Made by a program: the position numbers and the translations under genes. From Patescibacteria group bacterium (GTDB taxonomy: Bacteria > Patescibacteriota > Patescibacteriia > Patescibacteriales > UBA12465), in the NCBI GenBank assembly GCA_027858435.1, contig JAQICS010000015.1, positions 1 through 44,553 on the forward strand: a DNA stretch of 44,553 nucleotides, given 5' to 3'. This document shows positions 31,045 to 41,091 of the stretch, piece after piece (position 1 is the stretch's first letter; each line of letters opens with the position of its first letter). The notes under the pieces were generated by a model that had not been told where the DNA came from, did not search any database, and saw nothing but the letters and a program-made list of their open reading frames with translations.

Positions 31045-31116
31045 GGTCCCTTCGTCTAATGGTTAGGACATCAGATTCTCATTCTGAAAATAGGGGTTCG
31101 ATTCCCCTAGGGACTA
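31045..31116 (+). tRNA. tRNA-Glu(CTC)
   Basis: GGTCCCT...AGGGACT acceptor stem; TCAGA-TTCTCAT-TCTGA anticodon arm; GGTTCGATTCC T arm. Confidence 0.95.
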
Positions 31117-31122
31117 CGAAGT

Positions 31123-31668: not shown

Positions 31669-33903
31669 TTATAACCTCTTTGTCTTAAGAAGTAATGAAT
31701 TTGTAACGACACTTACAGAACTAAGAGCCATTGCTGATCCAGCAATAATAGGAGAAAGCAACCAGCCTGTCCAAAAATAGAATGCTCCGGCAGCAACCGG
31801 AATACCAATAATATTATAGAATAAAGCCCAAAACATATTTTGTTTAATTTTACTCATTGTCATTTTACTTAACTTAATTGCCCGAGAAATATCACGTAGA
31901 TCATTTTTCATTAAAACAATATTACCTGTTTCCATGGCCACATCTGTTCCTGATCCCATGGCAATCCCAATATCAGCCTGAGCTAATGCCGGTGAATCAT
32001 TTATTCCATCCCCAATCATTGCAACTTTACCCTTTTCTTGAAGCTTTTTAACATGGTTAACTTTATCCTCCGGTAACACTTCCGCAAAGAAGTTGGAAAT
32101 TCCAACCTGCTTTACAATCGCTTGTGCCGTTCTTTTATTATCACCAGTTATCATATAAACCTCCACTCCTAGTTTTAACAAACTAGAAACAGCTTCCTTA
32201 GAAGTTTCTCTTAACACATCCGCAACCGCGACAAGTCCAATACAATCATTATCTCTTGCTACTAGCATTACTGTTTTCCCTTCATTTTCTAATTTCTCCA
32301 TCTCCTTTCCTATGTTTTCTTTAGCATTTGTAACTAAAGAGTCTATTTCAATATTATTATCAATCATTAATTTTCTGGTACCTATAATGACTAGTTTATC
32401 ATCAAGTATTCCTCTAACACCTCCTCCAATAACCGCATGGAAATCAGTCACGTCTTGTAGTTTTATGTTTTGTTTTTTAGCTTCGCTTACTATTGCTTGT
32501 GCTAAAGGATGCTCCGATTTCTGTTCCACTGAAGCAATTACTTTAAGAAGCTCATCGCTTTTTATAATTTTCTGATTTTCTGAATCTATCTGTACAAGAT
32601 TTGTTACTTCTGGTTCACCTTTTGTAATAGTCCCCGTTTTATCAAACACAACATAATTAATCTTGTGAGCTATTTCTAAAGAATCAGCTCCTTTAATTAA
32701 TATTCCATTTTGAGCACCCTTACCCGAACCCACCATAATAGCTGTTGGTGTTGCTAGTCCTAAAGCACAAGGACAAGCGATTACTAATACTGCTACTGAC
32801 GTCATAAGGGCGAAAGAGAAACCTTGTCCTAATAGTAAAAACCAAATTAGAAAAGTGGAAACAGCAATAATAATAACTACGGCAACAAAGTAAGCTGACA
32901 CCTGATCGGCAAATCTTTGAATAGGCGCCTTTTTCCCCTGAGCTTCATCAATTAATTTAATAATTTTAGCCAAGGTGGTATTTGCGCCAATTTTAGTCGC
33001 CTTAAAAATAATTGAACCATTTTTATTAATTGTTGCACCGACGACAGGATCATTTATTTTTTTTTCAACTGGCACACTCTCCCCAGTTATCATACTTTCA
33101 TCAACATATGAATGTCCTTCAACAATTTCTCCGTCAACCGGAATGCTTTCACCTGGTTTAACAATAACCATGTCACCTAATTGAACCTCATCAACTGAAA
33201 CTTTTATTTCTTGTCCATTTTTTCGTATGGTTGCTATTTTGGGGCTCAAATCCATTAAAGACCTAATAGCATCGCCTGTTTTTCCTTTAGCAATTGCTTC
33301 AAGAAGTTTTCCTAAAACAACAAGAGTTATTAATATTGCGGATGTCTCAAAGTATTGACCGCCCATTGAATCAGACAAGATACTGTAGACACTAAAGAAA
33401 TAGGCAGCGCTTGTACCAAGTGCTATCAATGTGTCCATATTAGCACTCTTATTCTTCAAGGCAATCCAAGCACCTTGATAAAATTGCCAACCAACTACAA
33501 ATTGAACAGGTGTTGCTAGAAACCAAAGAATGTAATCTGCATAAGGAATTGTTATATTAAGCCACATAAAAACCATGCCCAATATAAAAGCTGGCGTAGC
33601 AAATATTAAACTGATTAAAAGTTTTCTTTTATATTTTTTTATTTCCCCGTGCTGCATGGCAAACTGTTTTTCAAAAGCATTTCCATAATCAGCCAGCTCA
33701 GCACCATAACCCACTTTTGTGATAGTAGAGATTAAATCTTTCGTCTTTAATTTATTATCATCATATTTAATAGACGCTTTATTTGATGATAAATTAACGT
33801 TTGATTTTTTTACTCCGTTCTTTTTTAAAAGAGTTTTATCAATCAAAGTTGAACACGAAGCACAATGCATCCCTGAAATTTGGAGCTCAATTTTTTTAAT
33901 CAT
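31669..33903 (-). CDS. copA: Cu(I)-exporting P1B-type ATPase
   Basis: GMHCASC HMA domain; TGES, CPC, DKTGT, SEHP, GDGIND, YN and MALSS. Confidence 0.95.
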
Positions 33904-33939
33904 AATTTTATTTCTTTAAACTTCTAAACTTCTTAACTA

Positions 33940-34920
33940 TTATTGTAACATTTCTTCAATTATTTGTTTTAGATTATCATATGAAACTGCCCCTCCTAAA
34001 GGTTTGCCATTGATAAAGTCTCCAGGAGTCCCGCTAACACCAAACTTTACGCCCTCTTGATAATCTGCTTCTACATTATTACTATATTTACCAGATGAGA
34101 CACATGAATCAAACTGGGCAACATCAAGCCCTATATTTTTGGCAAATGTTGAAAGTCTAGTCTCACTAATTGTTTGTTGATTTGTATACACCTCATCTGA
34201 AAACTCCCAAAATTTACCTTGTTCTGCAGCACACTCTGAAGCCTCGGCGGTTTTTCTAGCTAAAGGATGGATACTGTCTAATGGAAAGTGTTTAAAAACC
34301 CAGCTAACATCTTCTGGATATTCAGCAAGTATTTGATTCATAGTCTCATGAAAACGGGCACAATATGGACATTGAAAATCTGAATATTCAACAATTGTTA
34401 TTGGCGCATTTATATTACCTTTTATATTATCATCTTTTGATACGGGTATATCCAGCACATCTCCTTGAGCTGGTGCTTGATTACCAGCCGGGTTATTTGT
34501 TGGTACTACACTATCTTCTTTAGCAACATTATTATTACTTTTTACTATTACTCCTTTTTTTTCACCCTCACTACCCTGATTGATTAATATAAAAATAAGT
34601 ACTAAGACACCAATTCCTATCATAGTTAACATAACAGATAGATAAACACTATTTCCTTTTAATTTTTTATCATCTTTTTTAGTTACATGTTTCTCACTTT
34701 CTTCTTCATAATCCTCCGCGACATAATCACCGGCGCTAGCAATTATTTTTTTAATATTTGCAATACTTGTTTGATCCTCATCAAAAACAACTACCGCCTT
34801 ACCTGTTTCTTTATTAACCTTACTCATGGTAACACCTTTATGATCATTTAACTCATTTTCGATTAAACTAGAGCAGGAACCACAATGAATTCCTTTAATG
34901 TTTAACTTTAATTTTTTCAT
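33940..34920 (-). CDS. HMA domain - TM helix - DsbA-like thioredoxin fusion
   Basis: GIHCGSC; one TM helix; YSDFQCPYC; HFPL; GVSGTP. Confidence 0.88.
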   Translation of the reverse strand: MKKLKLNIKGIHCGSCSSLIENELNDHKGVTMSKVNKETGKAVVVFDEDQTSIANIKKIIASAGDYVAEDYEEESEKHVTKKDDKKLKGNSVYLSVMLTMIGIGVLVLIFILINQGSEGEKKGVIVKSNNNVAKEDSVVPTNNPAGNQAPAQGDVLDIPVSKDDNIKGNINAPITIVEYSDFQCPYCARFHETMNQILAEYPEDVSWVFKHFPLDSIHPLARKTAEASECAAEQGKFWEFSDEVYTNQQTISETRLSTFAKNIGLDVAQFDSCVSSGKYSNNVEADYQEGVKFGVSGTPGDFINGKPLGGAVSYDNLKQIIEEMLQ

Positions 34921-34949
34921 ATATTTATAGTTAGATATTAATTAATGTA

Positions 34950-36713
34950 CTATTGCCCACAACTATCACTCTCACCTCCTCCACAACCGCAACCGGTAGC
35001 ACCCGAGGGGATGACTTCGGTTTCTGAAACTGCTAAAGCTGACAGGGTGCCACTTTGTGCAGATCCGGCTTTCTCATCTACAACTTCGATTGTCCCAGAA
35101 ACCATTCCCATCCAACAACTAAATTTATATATTCCTGGTTGTTCTGGTGTAAACTCTTTCACACTTGTCTTTCCAGGAGTCAGAGCAATTTGCCCATCAA
35201 AAAGACCACGCGACATAACAGCATTTGTACAACCGCTTGTTCCTTTATCTGTGATTTCCCATCTTACTGGTATCCCGGCTCTCACTTTTAGTCTATTTGG
35301 TGTATAACCAGTAGACTTTGCGTCCATTTTTAAAACCTGTATACCATTAACAACTTCTGGTAATCCATCATCTTTAAATTCAATTGCCTGACTTTTATTA
35401 ATTGTCACATCACTTAGACTAGTCCAGCCCAAAACATTTAACTGCGCGTTAATGTTAAATAGAGCAAAGAATAAAACTAACACACCAGCTACTTTCAAAA
35501 AACGATTAGCTAAATGTGGTTTCTTTGAAAATTTTACACTCGATATACCAATGAATAACATAATTGGAAGAGTCCCGAGAGCAAAAAATAGCATTATGAG
35601 CATACCCTGTATCATACTACCAGACGCTAATGCTAGGGTTTGAGCTGTTATAGTAAAACCACAAGGAAGAAAAAAAGTTAAAGCACCCATCACAAACGGC
35701 ATATAACGCCCTTTAAAGTTATCCTCATTTACAGCATAACGAGTAATGAATTTAGGAGCAGAAATTTGAAATTTTTGAAAATATTTTACTCCCAACATTT
35801 GCAAAGCTAAAAATAACATCATTAATGATACCAGTGCTATTAATATAGTATTAGCTGTTAAAGATAACTTAAAAAAACTACCAATCGCACCCAAAATACC
35901 TCCAAACAAAGCATAAGAAACTAATCTTCCAGAATTAAATATTAAATGAGGTTGTAATTTTTTAATACTTTTATCATCTTTTGCATATAGGCTTGACCAC
36001 TGTTTTGACATTGAGAGAATAACCCCACCTACAAGCGCAGCGCAGCTTGAAAGCCCAGCTAATAAACCAAAAACTAAAAACATCGGCAAGGCAGAAGTAG
36101 AATTAACACTAATTAATGCTGATATACCAGTTTTATTAATAAATGAAAAACCAATAATAAGAGCAATAGAAACAGCCACAATTATTAACAGATCATGAAA
36201 CTTTTGTTTGTTTATAATAAGCTCTCCTCTAGCAGTAGTAATTAACTTTTCTTCGTGTTTTTTCTTTGGATTATCTGAAAAAATGTAGTCATCACCTTTA
36301 AATAACTTATTTAACTCTTCAATCTTAGGATAATCCCCGGAATATCTAATTTCAACCTGCCCCTTACCAACGGAGGCATCAACCGATTTCACTTCATCTC
36401 TTTTTATTAGACTTTTTTCAGTAGTTATTTCACATGATGCGCAATGCATTCCTTCTACAAAGTAAACGTGTTTTTTTATCTTAGCACTTTCTCGATTCTC
36501 ATGTAATTTATAATCAAGTCCTAATTTATTTATTTTATCTAGAATCTTTTTTTCACTAATCTCTTCCTCATTAAATTCTACTTCACATTTATTTGTTTCG
36601 AAATCAACATTGACTTTTCTTACTCCAGTTAAAATTTCAATTTCTGCCTCAACTTGGTACTTGTCTTCTTGTTTCTTTTTATTCTGAAGTAAGATGCTTA
36701 AATTTTTTATCAT
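34950..36713 (-). CDS. HMA + DsbD/CcdA-like (TauE/SafE-annotated) membrane domain + cupredoxin protein
   Basis: Degenerate HMA; GMHCASC; GLSSCAALVGG and FFLPCG membrane Cys pair; FSCWMGM cupredoxin motif; CGCGGG tail. Confidence 0.85.
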   Translation of the reverse strand: MIKNLSILLQNKKKQEDKYQVEAEIEILTGVRKVNVDFETNKCEVEFNEEEISEKKILDKINKLGLDYKLHENRESAKIKKHVYFVEGMHCASCEITTEKSLIKRDEVKSVDASVGKGQVEIRYSGDYPKIEELNKLFKGDDYIFSDNPKKKHEEKLITTARGELIINKQKFHDLLIIVAVSIALIIGFSFINKTGISALISVNSTSALPMFLVFGLLAGLSSCAALVGGVILSMSKQWSSLYAKDDKSIKKLQPHLIFNSGRLVSYALFGGILGAIGSFFKLSLTANTILIALVSLMMLFLALQMLGVKYFQKFQISAPKFITRYAVNEDNFKGRYMPFVMGALTFFLPCGFTITAQTLALASGSMIQGMLIMLFFALGTLPIMLFIGISSVKFSKKPHLANRFLKVAGVLVLFFALFNINAQLNVLGWTSLSDVTINKSQAIEFKDDGLPEVVNGIQVLKMDAKSTGYTPNRLKVRAGIPVRWEITDKGTSGCTNAVMSRGLFDGQIALTPGKTSVKEFTPEQPGIYKFSCWMGMVSGTIEVVDEKAGSAQSGTLSALAVSETEVIPSGATGCGCGGGESDSCGQ

Positions 36714-36825
36714 AAATTTATTAATATAAGCTATTACACATAACAGAGGGCTAGTAATAACTATTTTGTTCTCTTATTTTATTTTTAATTACTTTTAAAC
36801 AAACAATACTAAATCAAAAAACACA

Positions 36826-37464
36826 TTAGCAACCAAGCTCACCTTCAATCGGACAAATATCTAAATTATCATTACCTTCCTTTATCTCCATTTTTCCCGG
36901 TTCTGGGCCAGACACCACATATTGATTTACATCAGTTATATCCCATTCGTGTTCATGGTTCCATGAATTCCAATAATATCTCCATTCGTTCCAACCTACT
37001 CCTAAATGTTGAACATAAATACCATGATCAGCTAAAATTTTTCCTATTTTCCTTCCAGTCATACAAGGAATGCTGTAACAATAGATGATAATATCCTTAG
37101 ATTGGTCTAGCTTAGAAAATGCATTAACAATTCTATCTACATCACTATATGCCGAAGTATCGGGATCTTTATAGGCTGGAATGCTTACTGCTCCTACTAT
37201 ATGATCGTTCTCATACTCTTCCTGACTTCTTAAATCAACTAAAATAAAACTATCATCTCCCGCAGCAATACCCTTCCTTATACCATGTGGACTAACATGA
37301 ACAGCCGTTTCAACATCATAAAACTCTTTAATTAATTCCTGTTTTGTTTTAGTTTGGGGCAAATATTTTACCTTATTTTTACTAATAACTAAATAAGTAG
37401 TTAAACTACTGAAAATAACACTAACAATAATGGATAACGTTATAATTTTTAAAAGTTTTGTCAT
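36826..37464 (-). CDS. Membrane-anchored rhodanese-like protein
   Basis: LVDLRSQEEY, HIVGA, IIYCYSIPC and GWNEW. Confidence 0.85.
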   Translation of the reverse strand: MTKLLKIITLSIIVSVIFSSLTTYLVISKNKVKYLPQTKTKQELIKEFYDVETAVHVSPHGIRKGIAAGDDSFILVDLRSQEEYENDHIVGAVSIPAYKDPDTSAYSDVDRIVNAFSKLDQSKDIIIYCYSIPCMTGRKIGKILADHGIYVQHLGVGWNEWRYYWNSWNHEHEWDITDVNQYVVSGPEPGKMEIKEGNDNLDICPIEGELGC

Positions 37465-37517
37465 AGATCGATTATGTTATTATTTAAAATTGTAATTAAA
37501 AAAGTAATTTAAAATGA

Positions 37518-38057
37518 TTAAAATAAGTTAGCTACACTTTCAACCTGTGCAACCTCAATAATTAACTTTTCATTTTCTACTTTTCCGTTTGAACTTATTG
37601 GACCAGGATTACACCCCCCTTTATCAAGCGCTATTCTATCTTTTGAATAGGTAACTCCACAATTATTACATTTAATTAAATCTCCAATCTGAGTAAAGCC
37701 TTTTTTTGCATCATAACAAACTTCACACGCATTGGCGGCAACTCGGTAAGTACCATCAGAGGCTTTAATAACAAAGAAATAAATAGTTTTATTTTTTGTT
37801 TTAGAAAAATAATTAAAATAATGAATATTATTATCATTAACTAAAGATTCATCTATCATAATTTTATTTCCTTCCGCTTTCATTTCTGTACCCCTCTCAC
37901 CAATAAAATTATCCGTAACCTTTTCTTCATTTGCTAAAACTTTGTTGTCTACCCCCACGCTACTACTCTCGCCATCTATCGTTGAGCCAATATTAGAACT
38001 ACACCCGGCAATAAGTAAAGGAAAAACTATTAGCAACCACGCAATCTTTTTTGACAT
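37518..38057 (-). CDS. DUF2318-type Cys-rich (putative Fe-S) lipoprotein
   Basis: Lipobox LIAGC; ACEVC, CNNC and GGCNP motifs. Confidence 0.8.
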   Translation of the reverse strand: MSKKIAWLLIVFPLLIAGCSSNIGSTIDGESSSVGVDNKVLANEEKVTDNFIGERGTEMKAEGNKIMIDESLVNDNNIHYFNYFSKTKNKTIYFFVIKASDGTYRVAANACEVCYDAKKGFTQIGDLIKCNNCGVTYSKDRIALDKGGCNPGPISSNGKVENEKLIIEVAQVESVANLF

Positions 38058-38085
38058 AAATATTTTAATTAATTTTAAAAAATAA

Positions 38086-38128
38086 ACACCCTACTATACA
38101 TTGTAGTAGGGTGTAATAATTTTGTCAA
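38086..38128 (-). promoter_or_regulatory. Promoter and BlaI/CopY-type operator of the copper operon
   Basis: TTGACA (38128-38123)-17-TACAAT (38105-38100), overlapped by the palindrome TACTATA-CAT-TGTAGTA (38092-38108). Confidence 0.8.
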
Positions 38129-38144
38129 CTGTATTTAAAAAAGA

Positions 38145-39233
38145 CTAAAAATTTTGATTCATATTATTATAAAAAGGATACTTCTGCATTTTAATATTAC
38201 AGGACTCTTTTTTAAGTGACTCTTCGTTCCCTTCCATATTACAGAGCTGAGAACTCTCAGACATATTACAATCCTGATGCATACTATTATGATTCATTGC
38301 ACACACACCATTCTCTTGTTCAGCAATGGCTGTATTACTAGTTTGAAAAATAAAAATAAATATAAAAACAATAGCTAACATCACAAAGCTATTTAATAAG
38401 AAATTTGATTTAATAATATTTATTTTAATAACATAATTATCATCTGTAATCTTATTAATTCTTTCTTCAATTATTAAGCCAAAAGAAGCAACAACTAAAT
38501 TACTAGACTGACCAAGACCCTCTCTTAGTCTTAATACTTTGTACATTGCTCTCGCTAGATAAGATTTATTGGCAGAGTTTATAATCGCCCATTCATCAGC
38601 AGAAACTTCAGACAATTTATGGTACTGGTTAGAAAGCGCTTTTATGCCTGGTACAAAGAATAATGTGGTAGAAATAGTTTTAACAATAAACAACTTAATT
38701 GTTTCATTGTGAATTAAGTGGTGTTTTTCATGCAAAAGAACAGCTCTTAATTCCCTCTCACTTAATTTTTTTACTAAAACTGAGGATATACAAATTTTAG
38801 GACTTAAAAATCCATAACAAAAAACTATTGGACTATTATTTCTTGTTTCAAAGATTTTTTCTTCTAGATTTAAAGAAGTCGCCACCTTTCTTATTTTTTT
38901 TGAAATAAATTTCTTTTTGCTTCTAAGATTATTTTTAATAAATACTTTAGTTCTAAAATTTAAACTAATAACTTTAGCAATTACATATACCAAAAAGGCA
39001 AGCACTAGACTAGCGGCCAAAATTAAAAAAATAAACATCCAGGGATGACTACTAAAAGTCCAATGATTAGTACATCCACAAGCAGCTGCTAATTTTTCGC
39101 CCCAGACTGTCATGATGAATGATAGTCTACTTCGAAGTAAGATGTATATAAAGATAAAAACAAACAAAAAAAGAAAACTAATTAAATTAATTTTATAAAA
39201 AATTATATCAGCTTTTCTTCTCAGGTTTGTCAT
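38145..39233 (-). CDS. M56 (BlaR1/MecR1-like) membrane metallopeptidase
   Basis: FCYGFLSPKI, AVLLHEKHH and EVSAD; 2 nt downstream of the BlaI-family gene. Confidence 0.88.
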   Translation of the reverse strand: MTNLRRKADIIFYKINLISFLFLFVFIFIYILLRSRLSFIMTVWGEKLAAACGCTNHWTFSSHPWMFIFLILAASLVLAFLVYVIAKVISLNFRTKVFIKNNLRSKKKFISKKIRKVATSLNLEEKIFETRNNSPIVFCYGFLSPKICISSVLVKKLSERELRAVLLHEKHHLIHNETIKLFIVKTISTTLFFVPGIKALSNQYHKLSEVSADEWAIINSANKSYLARAMYKVLRLREGLGQSSNLVVASFGLIIEERINKITDDNYVIKINIIKSNFLLNSFVMLAIVFIFIFIFQTSNTAIAEQENGVCAMNHNSMHQDCNMSESSQLCNMEGNEESLKKESCNIKMQKYPFYNNMNQNF

Positions 39234-39235
39234 GG

Positions 39236-39622
39236 CTATTTAATGATAGATTTTAGTTTTTTGCGCAATTCAACTGATTTTTTATTATTATTTACTTCCA
39301 TTACATCAATAAAACCGGCAACAGCTACATCTTCACCAAATTTTGCAATCAAATTGTTAATAATTTTCTTTGAAATGGAGGCACTAAAAGTCTTTTGATC
39401 TTGAACGGGGGCATAAATATAGGCATCATTTTTAAACTCTCGTTTTAAAATATTTTTATCATAAAGACGAGACATAACTGTCATAATTGTAGTATATGCT
39501 AACTGCTTTTGACTTTTTATATTGTTTAAAACATCACGTACTGAAGCTTTTCCAAGCTCCCAAACAGTCTCCATCACCTTGTTTTCTAACTCTCCTAAAC
39601 CGTTGATTTCCTTTTTTTTCAT
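39236..39622 (-). CDS. BlaI/MecI/CopY-family repressor
   Basis: LGELENKVMETVW, LAYTTIMTVMSRLYDK and AYIY. Confidence 0.93.
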   Translation of the reverse strand: MKKKEINGLGELENKVMETVWELGKASVRDVLNNIKSQKQLAYTTIMTVMSRLYDKNILKREFKNDAYIYAPVQDQKTFSASISKKIINNLIAKFGEDVAVAGFIDVMEVNNNKKSVELRKKLKSIIK

Positions 39623-39636
39623 ATTTTTATTTTATC

Positions 39637-39678
39637 TACTATACTATGTAGTATACGGTATTCACTATTATATTGCAA
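39637..39678 (-). promoter_or_regulatory. Autoregulated promoter/operator of the blaI-like gene
   Basis: TTGCAA-17-TATACT with the palindrome TACTATA-CTA-TGTAGTA (39637-39653), 15/17 identical to the 38092 site. Confidence 0.78.
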
Positions 39679-39788: not shown

Positions 39789-39882
39789 GCGCCTATAGCT
39801 CATTTAGTAGAGCAACTCCCTTTTAAGGAGACGGTCCCAGGTTCTCATACTAAAAACAGGGATTCGATTCCCCTAGGGACTA
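39789..39882 (+). pseudogene. Chimeric pseudo-tRNA: 5' tRNA-Lys(TTT) fused to 3' tRNA-Glu
   Basis: GCGCCTA-TAGCTCA...GAGC-CTCC-CTTTTAA-GGAG-...CCAGGTTC, then tRNA-Glu sequence from the anticodon loop onward; acceptor stem cannot pair fully. Confidence 0.75.
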
Positions 39883-40356: not shown

Positions 40357-40531
40357 AGTTAACACTTTCACATGATGCAAAGTTTTTATTTTTCTTCCTT
40401 ACTAATTATTGTAAAAAAAGAAATTTAGATGAAAGAAATTTATACTCCTTATTATTCTTTTTCTAAAATGATAGCGTAAGAGAAAGTTTATATTATCTAA
40501 ATTTCTAGAACCGCATATTTAGGTGTTAGGC
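40357..40531 (-). other. attC-like site (long, degenerate)
   Basis: Minus strand GCCTAAC at the MFS gene end, GTTAACT ~170 bp on; imperfect complementary arms. Confidence 0.4.
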
Positions 40532-41091
40532 GTAGTTTTATTTTTTCTCGTAGCAAAATATAATTGCGCTTGTGTTAGAGTTGCGCTTACTTGGACTACA
40601 AACATTGTAAAAAATAGAATTTTAAATCCCCATTGATTTACTATTAATGTTCCAATAAATGAAGCAACTCCTACGGCTAAAAAAGCGCCTCCACCTTCAA
40701 ATCCCCATTGTTCACCTTCTTTACCTTTTTGAACATACTTAGCAAACAAAGCGGTTAACGGTGCTGATAAACAGGCTGTTCCGAGTGCAAATACTACTTG
40801 TAGAAAAAATAATTGCCATGGACTGGATATCATTAAATACAAAAGACTACCTAAAGCATAAAATCCGTATCCAAAAATTGTAATAAGTTCTTTGTTAAAC
40901 CTGTCAGACAATTTACCAACTATTATCATTAACACTCCTGTGCACACACTAAAAACCGTGACTGTAAAACCAATGTCTAATAAACTACCGCCAATTTTTT
41001 CAACAAACACGGCATAAAATGGTCCAATTAAGTTATCACCAAAATTTGCCATCAAACTGGCACTTAATAATATTTTGTATCCTTTTTTCAT
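40519..41091 (-). CDS. Half-size (6-TM) MFS transporter
   Basis: MFS motif A (GKLSDRFN); six hydrophobic helices; 190 aa. Confidence 0.8.
   Translation of the reverse strand: MKKGYKILLSASLMANFGDNLIGPFYAVFVEKIGGSLLDIGFTVTVFSVCTGVLMIIVGKLSDRFNKELITIFGYGFYALGSLLYLMISSPWQLFFLQVVFALGTACLSAPLTALFAKYVQKGKEGEQWGFEGGGAFLAVGVASFIGTLIVNQWGFKILFFTMFVVQVSATLTQAQLYFATRKNKTTPNT

Follow-up and report, generated by a model that had tools for sequence, protein, structure and literature searches.

Among the closest described relatives of the system treated here are the BlaI/BlaR1 and MecI/MecR1 pairs of Staphylococcus aureus and Bacillus licheniformis, in which the repressor gene precedes the protease gene, the pair is autoregulated, a palindromic operator with a TACA/TGTA core lies over the promoter, and the HExxH domain of the protease is cytoplasmic, with the sensor placed after the last transmembrane (TM) helix. 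The same gene order, apparent autoregulation and operator core, together with a predicted membrane arrangement of the same kind, recur in a seven-gene cluster that encodes a BlaI-family repressor, an M56-family membrane peptidase and a set of copper- and thiol-handling proteins, and that lies in a 44,553-nt contig stretch (hereafter the window) of the 916-kb, 92.75% complete genome of an uncultured member of the Patescibacteria. The window peptidase differs from BlaR1 and MecR1 in lacking a transpeptidase domain, in having one N-terminal TM helix fewer and in matching none of the solved BlaR1 chains by sequence; where the cleavage site aligns, the P1 residue of window-type repressors is Gly or Gln and not the Asn of BlaI and MecI, and the output consists of metal and thiol genes rather than beta-lactamase or PBP2a. 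CopY, CopR and TcrY of Firmicutes belong to the same winged-helix family, control CopA operons and use an operator with a TACA...TGTA core; unlike the window repressor, which is devoid of Cys and His, CopY dispenses with a partner protease and senses Cu(I) or Zn(II) through its own C-terminal Cys cluster, CxCx4CxC.

Only in cyanobacteria has a copper-dependent switch of the BlaI/BlaR type been proven, namely in Synechocystis sp. PCC 6803, where, according to the available part of the preprint by Garcia-Canas et al. (bioRxiv 10.1101/2020.07.31.226407), the BlaI/CopY-family regulator PetR, which lacks the CopY copper site, is co-transcribed with PetP, an M48/M56 protease without a beta-lactam domain; PetR degradation depends on the protease and takes place only when copper is added, both in Synechocystis and in E. 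coli extracts. As described there, PetP has four TM helices, a 14-residue outer loop between TM2 and TM3 that contains two conserved Met proposed as ligands, and essentially no C-terminal tail, whereas three TM helices are predicted for the window peptidase, with CGC in a loop of 33 residues and four Cys in a tail of 66, a comparison in which PetP is represented by its description. In the same text the PetR regulon comprises petE, petJ and two small genes and not copper export, and the PetR core site is GACN5GTC; the window combines CopA with thiol-redox genes under CTACTACA-N3-TRTAGTAG, and none of the PetP-specific features (Met pair, missing tail, petE/petJ regulon) is found in its system. 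Proteases with a short C-terminal region other than a penicillin-binding domain also occur in CenI/CenR of Clostridioides difficile and in other sensor-less BlaIR pairs, and the accessible portion of the corresponding study (PMC13081940) gives sensor-less as the commonest architecture of M56/BlaR homologues, about 6% of which carry a transpeptidase domain. The CenR tail is described in that portion as largely disordered and its regulon as one of the cell envelope, whereas the Cys of the window tail form a conserved pattern and the window regulon, being one of metal and thiol genes, hints at a ligand. Within these sources as available, PetP is the only experimentally studied sensor-less BlaR-type protease whose signal is established. 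Finally, the accessible text on the CsoR meta-regulon (PMC4938975) lists CopA, HMA proteins, DUF2318 membrane proteins and HMA-DsbD_2 proteins, as in the window, under the cytoplasmic Cu(I) sensor CsoR; the window has a BlaI–M56 pair in that place, and no CsoR gene was found in the genome.

The reading of the window locus that we favour, with a confidence only a little better than even, is that the outer Cys of the peptidase respond to a thiophilic metal, probably Cu(I), or to thiol oxidation driven by copper, that the cytoplasmic zinc protease would thereby become active and cut the repressor, and that both operons of the cluster would then be derepressed. Metal or disulfide stress as the signal, and cleavage of the repressor as its relay, had also been proposed in an earlier sequence-only reading; both are drawn from homology and context. 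More tentatively, and at somewhat less than an even chance, the CGC loop and the four-Cys, CxM-bearing tail may be a previously undescribed extracytoplasmic Cu(I)/thiol sensor module that replaces the penicillin-binding domain of BlaR1; it would name a ligand for a large orphan BlaR-like branch (482 representatives at 50% identity, E <= 1e-30), and operator 2 would double as terminator of the regulator operon, insulating the two transcription units. That earlier reading had put the locus forward as a candidate for an undescribed system; this claim is weakened, PetR/PetP being already a copper-dependent BlaI/BlaR-type switch and the sensor-less BlaR architecture the commonest one. What the locus adds to PetRP and to sensor-less BlaR is a connection to copper export and an outer module built on Cys. 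A full-text literature search, confined to main texts and thus short of supplements such as the alignment of PetP or the tables of CenR architecture, returned only PetRP and general reviews, and no account of a BlaI/M56 pair on copper export or with a conserved Cys sensor.

The topology of the peptidase was predicted from hydropathy and the positive-inside rule, with TM helices at residues 15-33, 67-85 and 278-296. Because the stretch after the second helix is extremely basic (14 Lys/Arg in residues 86-135 and 17 in 155-270, that is, 31 in 86-277 outside the hydrophobic segment 136-154), the HEKHH domain is assigned to the cytoplasm; the N-terminus would therefore be inside, and the loop 34-66, with its CGC, H57 and H63, and the net acidic tail 297-362 (4 Lys/Arg against 8 Asp/Glu) would be outside. 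Loop and tail are thus predicted to occupy the positions of the BlaR1 outer loop and sensor domain, the BlaR1 layout being taken from the available part of bioRxiv 10.1101/2020.07.31.226407. In agreement with the sequence-only reading, which had remarked on the absence of a penicillin-binding domain and on the CGCTNH and tail Cys segments, Pfam reported no transpeptidase domain (PF00905) in the peptidase and the Cys proved conserved; the PF05569 match covers only profile positions 85-293, the first part of the model being missing, and with the BlaR1 model NF033108, whose cut-off is 1200 bits, the protein reaches 18.7 bits. A public protein cluster holds a 322-residue form of the protein that starts at Met41 and would be without the first TM helix; the 362-residue start, 2 nt past the repressor stop, is preferred because homologues align from residue 1.

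In an alignment of 34 relatives, H168, E169 and H172 of the zinc site, as well as E209 and D213, are invariant (34/34), and the outer Cys are conserved, with C52 kept in 34, C54 in 33, C311 in 33, C322 in 29, C331 in 32 and C345 in 29 sequences. H63 is kept in 26 of the 34, no Met column of the loop reaches 40%, and the rest of the tail varies freely. Each of C311, C322 and C331 is followed by x-Met, giving three CxM motifs in the tail. A wider sample, consisting of the 128 full-length proteins with HExxH among the 150 best representatives, has the CxC in 85, at least three tail Cys in 93 and both in 70, with an odd tail count in 43.

These counts bear on the possibility that the outer Cys are purely structural, forming disulfides in a small outer domain, while the signal comes, for instance, from a partner protein, from envelope damage or from a small molecule and the copper and thiol genes are simply the output. 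Such a role would suit the commonest total of outer Cys, which is an even six (four in the tail in 23/34 and two in the loop in 33/34), and in the accessible text of PMC13081940 other sensor-less BlaR homologues, such as CenR, have no metal-linked signal. Purely paired disulfides are nevertheless disfavoured because odd tail counts are frequent, with three Cys in 7/34 and odd numbers in 43/128; CxM motifs and His also accompany the Cys in the closest relatives, and for a stress regulon that handles metals and thiols the simplest inducer is the very stress it counters. We therefore regard a purely structural role as decidedly unlikely.

The repressor, the sole BlaI-family gene in the genome, contains 0 Cys and 0 His, in line with the earlier remark that it is Cys-free and lacks the C-terminal copper site of CopY, and no Cys or His is conserved among 19 aligned repressors (the window and 18 loci); a CopY-type metal site is excluded on these grounds. 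It aligns over its full length with the MecI and BlaI structures, its G103-F104 falling on N101-F102 of MecI, which from the BlaI/MecI literature we take to be the cleavage site. The block G-[ED]-x-AVA-[QG]-F is kept in most of the 19 repressors, so that a conserved, if unproven, candidate scissile region appears to be present.

Could copper be sensed in the manner of CopY by the repressor, or by a cytoplasmic HMA chaperone that acts on the repressor, with the peptidase only clearing the repressor or unrelated to the signal? The best NCBIfam match of the repressor is indeed the CopY/TcrY equivalog TIGR02698 (E 6.2e-12), and the operator has the TACA...TGTA core of cop boxes (cop box TACANNTGTA, in the available text of PMC7253601). 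The match, at 45.9 bits, stays far under the equivalog cut-off of 121.95, however; the protein has no CxCx4CxC and none of the conserved ligands that such a site would need, and the peptidase gene is translationally coupled to it and co-inherited in 19 of 20 loci. The scheme as a whole thus appears very improbable, and sensing by the repressor itself, with its ligands missing, looks nearly excluded. Judged by these family comparisons, the window system is a member of the BlaI + M56 family that is neither BlaR1 (no penicillin-binding domain, 18.7 against 1200 bits) nor CopY (45.9 against 121.95 bits, no Cys cluster).

Both promoters of the cluster carry related operator sites. The 17-mer ACTACANNGTATAGTAG has exactly two matches in the window, both on the minus strand (39636-39652 and 38091-38107), against 0.07 expected, and 0/100 shuffles gave two matches. 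Of the earlier claim that the same 17-bp palindrome overlaps both promoters, the location holds, since both sites overlap the −10 boxes of sigma-70-like promoters; the sites are not identical but agree at 15 of 17 positions, the palindrome is imperfect, and comparison with relatives makes the unit a 19-mer, CTACTACA-N3-TRTAGTAG (its right half also given as TGTAGTAG). In the whole 916-kb genome, only operators 1 and 2 have at most two mismatches to CTACTACANNNTGTAGTAG, and the number of sites with three mismatches (7) falls within the range of shuffled genomes (1-8); the detectable regulon is therefore this cluster alone, and a regulon reaching elsewhere in the genome was rejected. Together with the coupling of the repressor–peptidase pair, the presence of the site on both promoters upholds the proposal of a copper/thiol-redox regulon under the operator of this pair.

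Across 20 loci, here the window and 19 relatives, a site with at most two mismatches lies downstream of the peptidase gene in 18, and one with at most three mismatches lies upstream of the repressor gene in 12. In most related loci the downstream operator is preceded by TTGACA within 32 nt, and TTGCAA- or TTGACA-like boxes stand at the position equivalent to P1. Two loci (L014 and L019) have, downstream of the peptidase gene, an operator with a 5-nt rather than a 3-nt spacer, CCTACTACA-ATAAT-ATAGTAGG and CCTACTACA-CTAAC-ATAGTAGG, which is a spacing variant of the same palindrome. Separately, a motif (T)GTGGATAA occurs a few bases ahead of the −35 element of the downstream promoter in L002, L004-L007, L009, L010, L012, L013, L015-L018 and L020; it is also found upstream of the repressor promoter in L013 and is absent at that position from the window and L001. 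We take GTGGATAA to be the reverse complement of the DnaA-box consensus TTATCCACA.

The hairpin that contains operator 2 folds as RNA with −17.2 kcal/mol (z −3.4; 0/200 shuffles as good) and was flagged as terminator-like. In several related loci, the flanks of the downstream site vary in sequence yet remain complementary, with arms of up to 17 bp in L006 and of 13-14 bp in L009, L010, L012 and L015. As the P2 transcript would start inside the hairpin, this element could terminate P1 transcripts while sparing those of P2; site 2 is thus probably an operator that may, in addition, serve the upstream operon as an intrinsic terminator, a dual role suggested by the fold. The stable hairpin with its U-run, and the co-variation that keeps it paired, would equally suit a site that is mainly a terminator, with the pair regulating only itself and P2 effectively constitutive or otherwise controlled. 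But the downstream 19-mer is nearer the consensus than the upstream one (at most two mismatches in 18/20, against at most three in 12/20), it overlaps a near-consensus promoter in the window and in relatives, and the two roles can coexist, all of which leaves a site that is mainly a terminator hardly probable at all.

The positions of the genes, promoters, operators and peptidase segments are collected in Table 1.

Table 1. Features of the repressor–peptidase locus and its structural operon (window coordinates; ORF, open reading frame).
Feature	Position	Strand	Basis
BlaI/MecI/CopY-family winged-helix repressor, 128 aa	39236..39622	-	PF03965, 85.5 bits (cut-off 22.6), E 4.3e-24, residues 9-110
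M56/M48 membrane zinc metallopeptidase, 362 aa	38145..39233	-	PF05569, 47.6 bits (cut-off 31); PF01435, 46.6 bits (cut-off 20.3)
CGCTNH segment, residues 52-57, in predicted outer loop 34-66	39063..39080	-	Alignment of 34
HEKHH zinc site (H168, E169, H172), predicted cytoplasmic domain	38718..38732	-	Ligands invariant in 34/34
Predicted extracytoplasmic tail, residues 297-362 (66 residues), with C311, C322, C331, C345, H315, H319	38148..38345	-	Hydropathy/charge and alignment
DUF2318/FtrD-like lipoprotein, CEVC and CNNC	37518..38057	-	PF10080, E 1.3e-25; lipobox IAGC; syntenic in L001
Membrane-anchored rhodanese-domain protein	36826..37464	-	PF00581, E 8.8e-12
HMA x2-DsbD_2-Cupredoxin_1 membrane protein; CASC, CWMGM, C-terminal CGC	34950..36713	-	Pfam and motifs
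HMA-TM-DsbA-like thioredoxin-fold protein; CGSC, CPYC	33940..34920	-	PF13462, E 1.7e-31; PF01323; PF00403; motifs
CopA, P1B-1 type Cu(I)/Ag(I) exporting ATPase	31669..33903	-	TIGR01511, 640.8 bits (cut-off 397)
Promoter P1 (predicted) of the repressor–peptidase operon, TTGCAA-17-TATACT	39650..39678	-	Consensus scan, 9/12 matches
Promoter P2 (predicted) of the structural operon, TTGACA-17-TACAAT	38100..38128	-	Consensus scan, 11/12, best in region
Operator 1 (putative), ATACTACATAGTATAGTAG, overlapping the −10 of P1	39636..39654	-	At most two mismatches to CTACTACANNNTGTAGTAG
Operator 2 (putative), CTACTACAATGTATAGTAG, inside a 29-nt hairpin followed by a U-run	Operator 38091-38109; hairpin 38086..38114	-	One mismatch to consensus

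All seven genes were found on the minus strand from ORFs with Pfam and NCBIfam, and these databases agree with the identities first proposed for them (BlaI, M56, DUF2318, rhodanese, HMA-DsbD-like-cupredoxin, HMA-DsbA and CopA). The repressor and peptidase genes are spaced by 2 nt, a gap by which the pair is translationally coupled, and the gaps within the second operon measure 53, 112, 29 and 36 nt. Several independent points favour copper for this operon, among them the copper requirement of PetP. The cluster encodes four HMA domains and one cupredoxin, and CopA contains all of CASC, CPC, NX6YNX4P, PX6MX2SSX5N and DKTGT, where CPC, NX6YNX4P and PX6MX2SSX5[NS] are, as we understand the P1B-ATPase literature, signatures of P1B-1 Cu(I)/Ag(I) ATPases. 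In the genome, at its 92.75% completeness, CsoR and CueR gave 0 matches each. DUF2318, HMA-DsbD_2 and HMA proteins and CopA make up the copper meta-regulon inferred for CsoR in gut Firmicutes, as far as the accessible text of PMC4938975 goes. Among 401 Patescibacteria genomes, the peptidase subfamily occurs in 15 and CopA in 240, and 14 of the 15 with the subfamily have CopA (G152 is without), a co-occurrence that is a weak hint, as related genomes are not independent. The genome has a second CopA-type ATPase of 665 aa without HMA, on contig C41 (C41:11371-13134; L084:4860-6857, minus strand); the genes after it on the same strand encode a SHOCT-domain protein, proteins of unknown kind and a sigma factor of the ECF type, and that contig has no operator with at most two mismatches.

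Relatives of the peptidase are numerous. A word-index search gave 42 matches, nearly all of 330-364 aa, the few named ones coming from Patescibacteria/Parcubacteria, and a HMMER search of 1.84 billion representatives returned 24,945 proteins at E <= 1e-3, 4,519 at 1e-10 and 482 at 1e-30, the last being representatives clustered at 50% identity. With a 12-sequence peptidase alignment, 80 related loci were collected from species-representative genomes, the closest 20 of which (L001-L020) have a BlaI gene directly upstream of the M56 gene in 19 cases, the remaining locus (L011) being cut by a contig end. HMA-DsbD_2-cupredoxin follows the peptidase directly in five of the 20 (L001, L002, L010, L013 and L020), and L001 is fully syntenic with the window save for the rhodanese, which has no tblastn match of at least 45 bits in any of the 80 loci; the rhodanese is specific to the lineage of the window and was rejected as a core member of the regulon. 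More distant M56 genes beside DsbA, DsbD-cupredoxin or CopA genes (L021, L032, L035, L065 and L079) encode Cys-rich tails of the form C-x5-6-C-x3-C without CxC, so that a Cys-bearing tail is a wider theme than the exact pattern of the window.

The remaining loci have a second operon type, with a ~250-aa Cys-rich protein, a ~95-aa protein, a ~277-aa thioredoxin-like protein and several DUF1573 proteins, and further DUF3105, His-rich DUF2933, DsbD_TM/SfLAP-like, AhpC/TSA and YibE/F proteins. An ATP-synthase-like operon had been considered for the ~250-, ~95- and ~277-aa genes and was rejected on their Pfam assignments (thioredoxin-like, DUF1573, DUF3105 and DUF2933). The first two proteins of this operon type end in a conserved P-x-x-VGGC (L005:1953-3024, L009:11152-12321, L012:2358-3415), and the first carries CEFCCG and AACGCAHS, the latter resembling AACGCTNH of the peptidase loop. 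The HMA-DsbD_2-cupredoxin protein of the window, in turn, ends with CGC at residues 575-577; CGC thus recurs in the putative sensor and in regulon products.

Several observations weigh against the favoured reading. When the PDB was searched by sequence, neither the family profile nor the peptidase alone gave a meaningful match to solved structures, BlaR1 included, and the tail has no classical Cu(I) motif (no CxxC and no Met-rich run conserved across the family), only its Cys being conserved; these outward-facing Cys may simply be disulfide-bonded. The PetP mechanism is not simply transferable to the window, because PetP, as described in the available part of its preprint, has no tail and proposed Met ligands. 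Most Patescibacteria CopA genes are without this regulator (15/401 against 240/401). The neighbourhood, whose conservation had been named as a check on the proposal, is conserved for the BlaI–M56 pair (19/20) and for the downstream operator (18/20) and less regularly for its copper genes: by tblastn, 7/20 loci (L001, L002, L010, L013, L020, L009 and L014) have a CopA-type ATPase gene in the same orientation farther downstream, inside the flank collected. In 14 loci scanned with Pfam, a count that rests on 85 of 144 ORFs, a thioredoxin-fold product follows the peptidase in 11 and a copper-type domain (HMA, cupredoxin, P-type ATPase or DUF2933) in 6, so that the common denominator would be thiol redox rather than copper. 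The related loci therefore cut both ways: their tie to envelope thiol chemistry is stable, that to copper less regular.

The main rival of metal sensing is a thiol-disulfide redox sensor: the outer Cys would change from thiol to disulfide and back when the envelope is under oxidative, disulfide or reductive stress, and the part of copper would at most be an indirect one, as a catalyst of thiol oxidation. CxC motifs can be redox-active, thioredoxin-fold, DsbA-like or peroxiredoxin-like proteins are the commonest operon product (11/14, against 6/14 for copper-type domains), the second operon type favours such a sensor, and the window regulon itself includes DsbD-like, DsbA-like and rhodanese proteins. 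Against this stand the Cu(I)-type CopA with which the window operon and five others end, and the HMA domains fused to redox proteins. In Firmicutes, moreover, the same structural genes are under the Cu(I) sensor CsoR (PMC4938975, accessible text), and the one tested sensor-less BlaR-type protease, PetP, responds to copper according to the available part of its preprint. A sensor of thiol redox alone is accordingly a serious but unlikely candidate.

Under the favoured reading, in which copper or copper-driven thiol oxidation acts on the outer Cys, the circuit might run as follows. A dimeric repressor on CTACTACA-N3-TRTAGTAG, at the sites found over the −10 boxes of P1 and P2, would keep both operons off, as is expected from its family. 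In the predicted topology, the M56 peptidase would have its N-terminus inside, its protease domain in the cytoplasm, and its CGC loop and four-Cys CxM tail outside, where Cu(I) most likely, and possibly Ag(I), would bind the thiolates or copper would oxidize them. The change at the outer Cys would be relayed across the membrane and switch the protease on, which may then cut the dimerization helix of the repressor near G103-F104, whereupon dimers would fall apart and P1 and P2 would open. Going by the domain families of the products, CopA would export cytoplasmic Cu(I), and the DsbD-like, DsbA-like, rhodanese and cupredoxin proteins would repair or prevent copper-driven mis-oxidation of envelope thiols, while the operator-2 hairpin and its U-run probably terminate P1 transcripts as well.

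The surroundings of the cluster have an island-like look, although no integrase was seen. Just upstream of P1 lies a 93-nt tRNA-like sequence (39789-39881, plus strand) that scores 31.9 bits against a gathering score of 29 and is not called by ARAGORN. Its anticodon loop is CUUUUAA (UUU, Lys), 23 nt are inserted ahead of the T arm, and the acceptor ends are mismatched; together with a tRNA-Glu (31045-31117, plus strand), this sequence brackets the cluster. G+C at 32-36 kb within the cluster (0.34-0.35) exceeds that of the flanks (0.28-0.31). For a 190-aa ORF at 40519-41091 (minus strand), the match to the MFS_1 model is confined to its first half (positions 2-175 of 347), which makes this either a half-size or a truncated major-facilitator gene.

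According to PMC13081940, most annotated 'BlaR' proteins have neither a beta-lactam domain nor an established signal. The present subfamily provides a concrete ligand hypothesis, in which six outward Cys respond to a thiophilic metal or to thiol oxidation, together with a defined operator and a two-promoter regulon. If this is true, the principle of PetRP, in which metal is sensed outside and the repressor is cut inside, would extend from a cyanobacterial cofactor switch to copper detoxification. It would also explain how the copper pump of the window is controlled in a minimal genome in which no CsoR, CueR or CopY-type sensor was found, and copper export would be transcriptionally tied to the maintenance of envelope disulfides.

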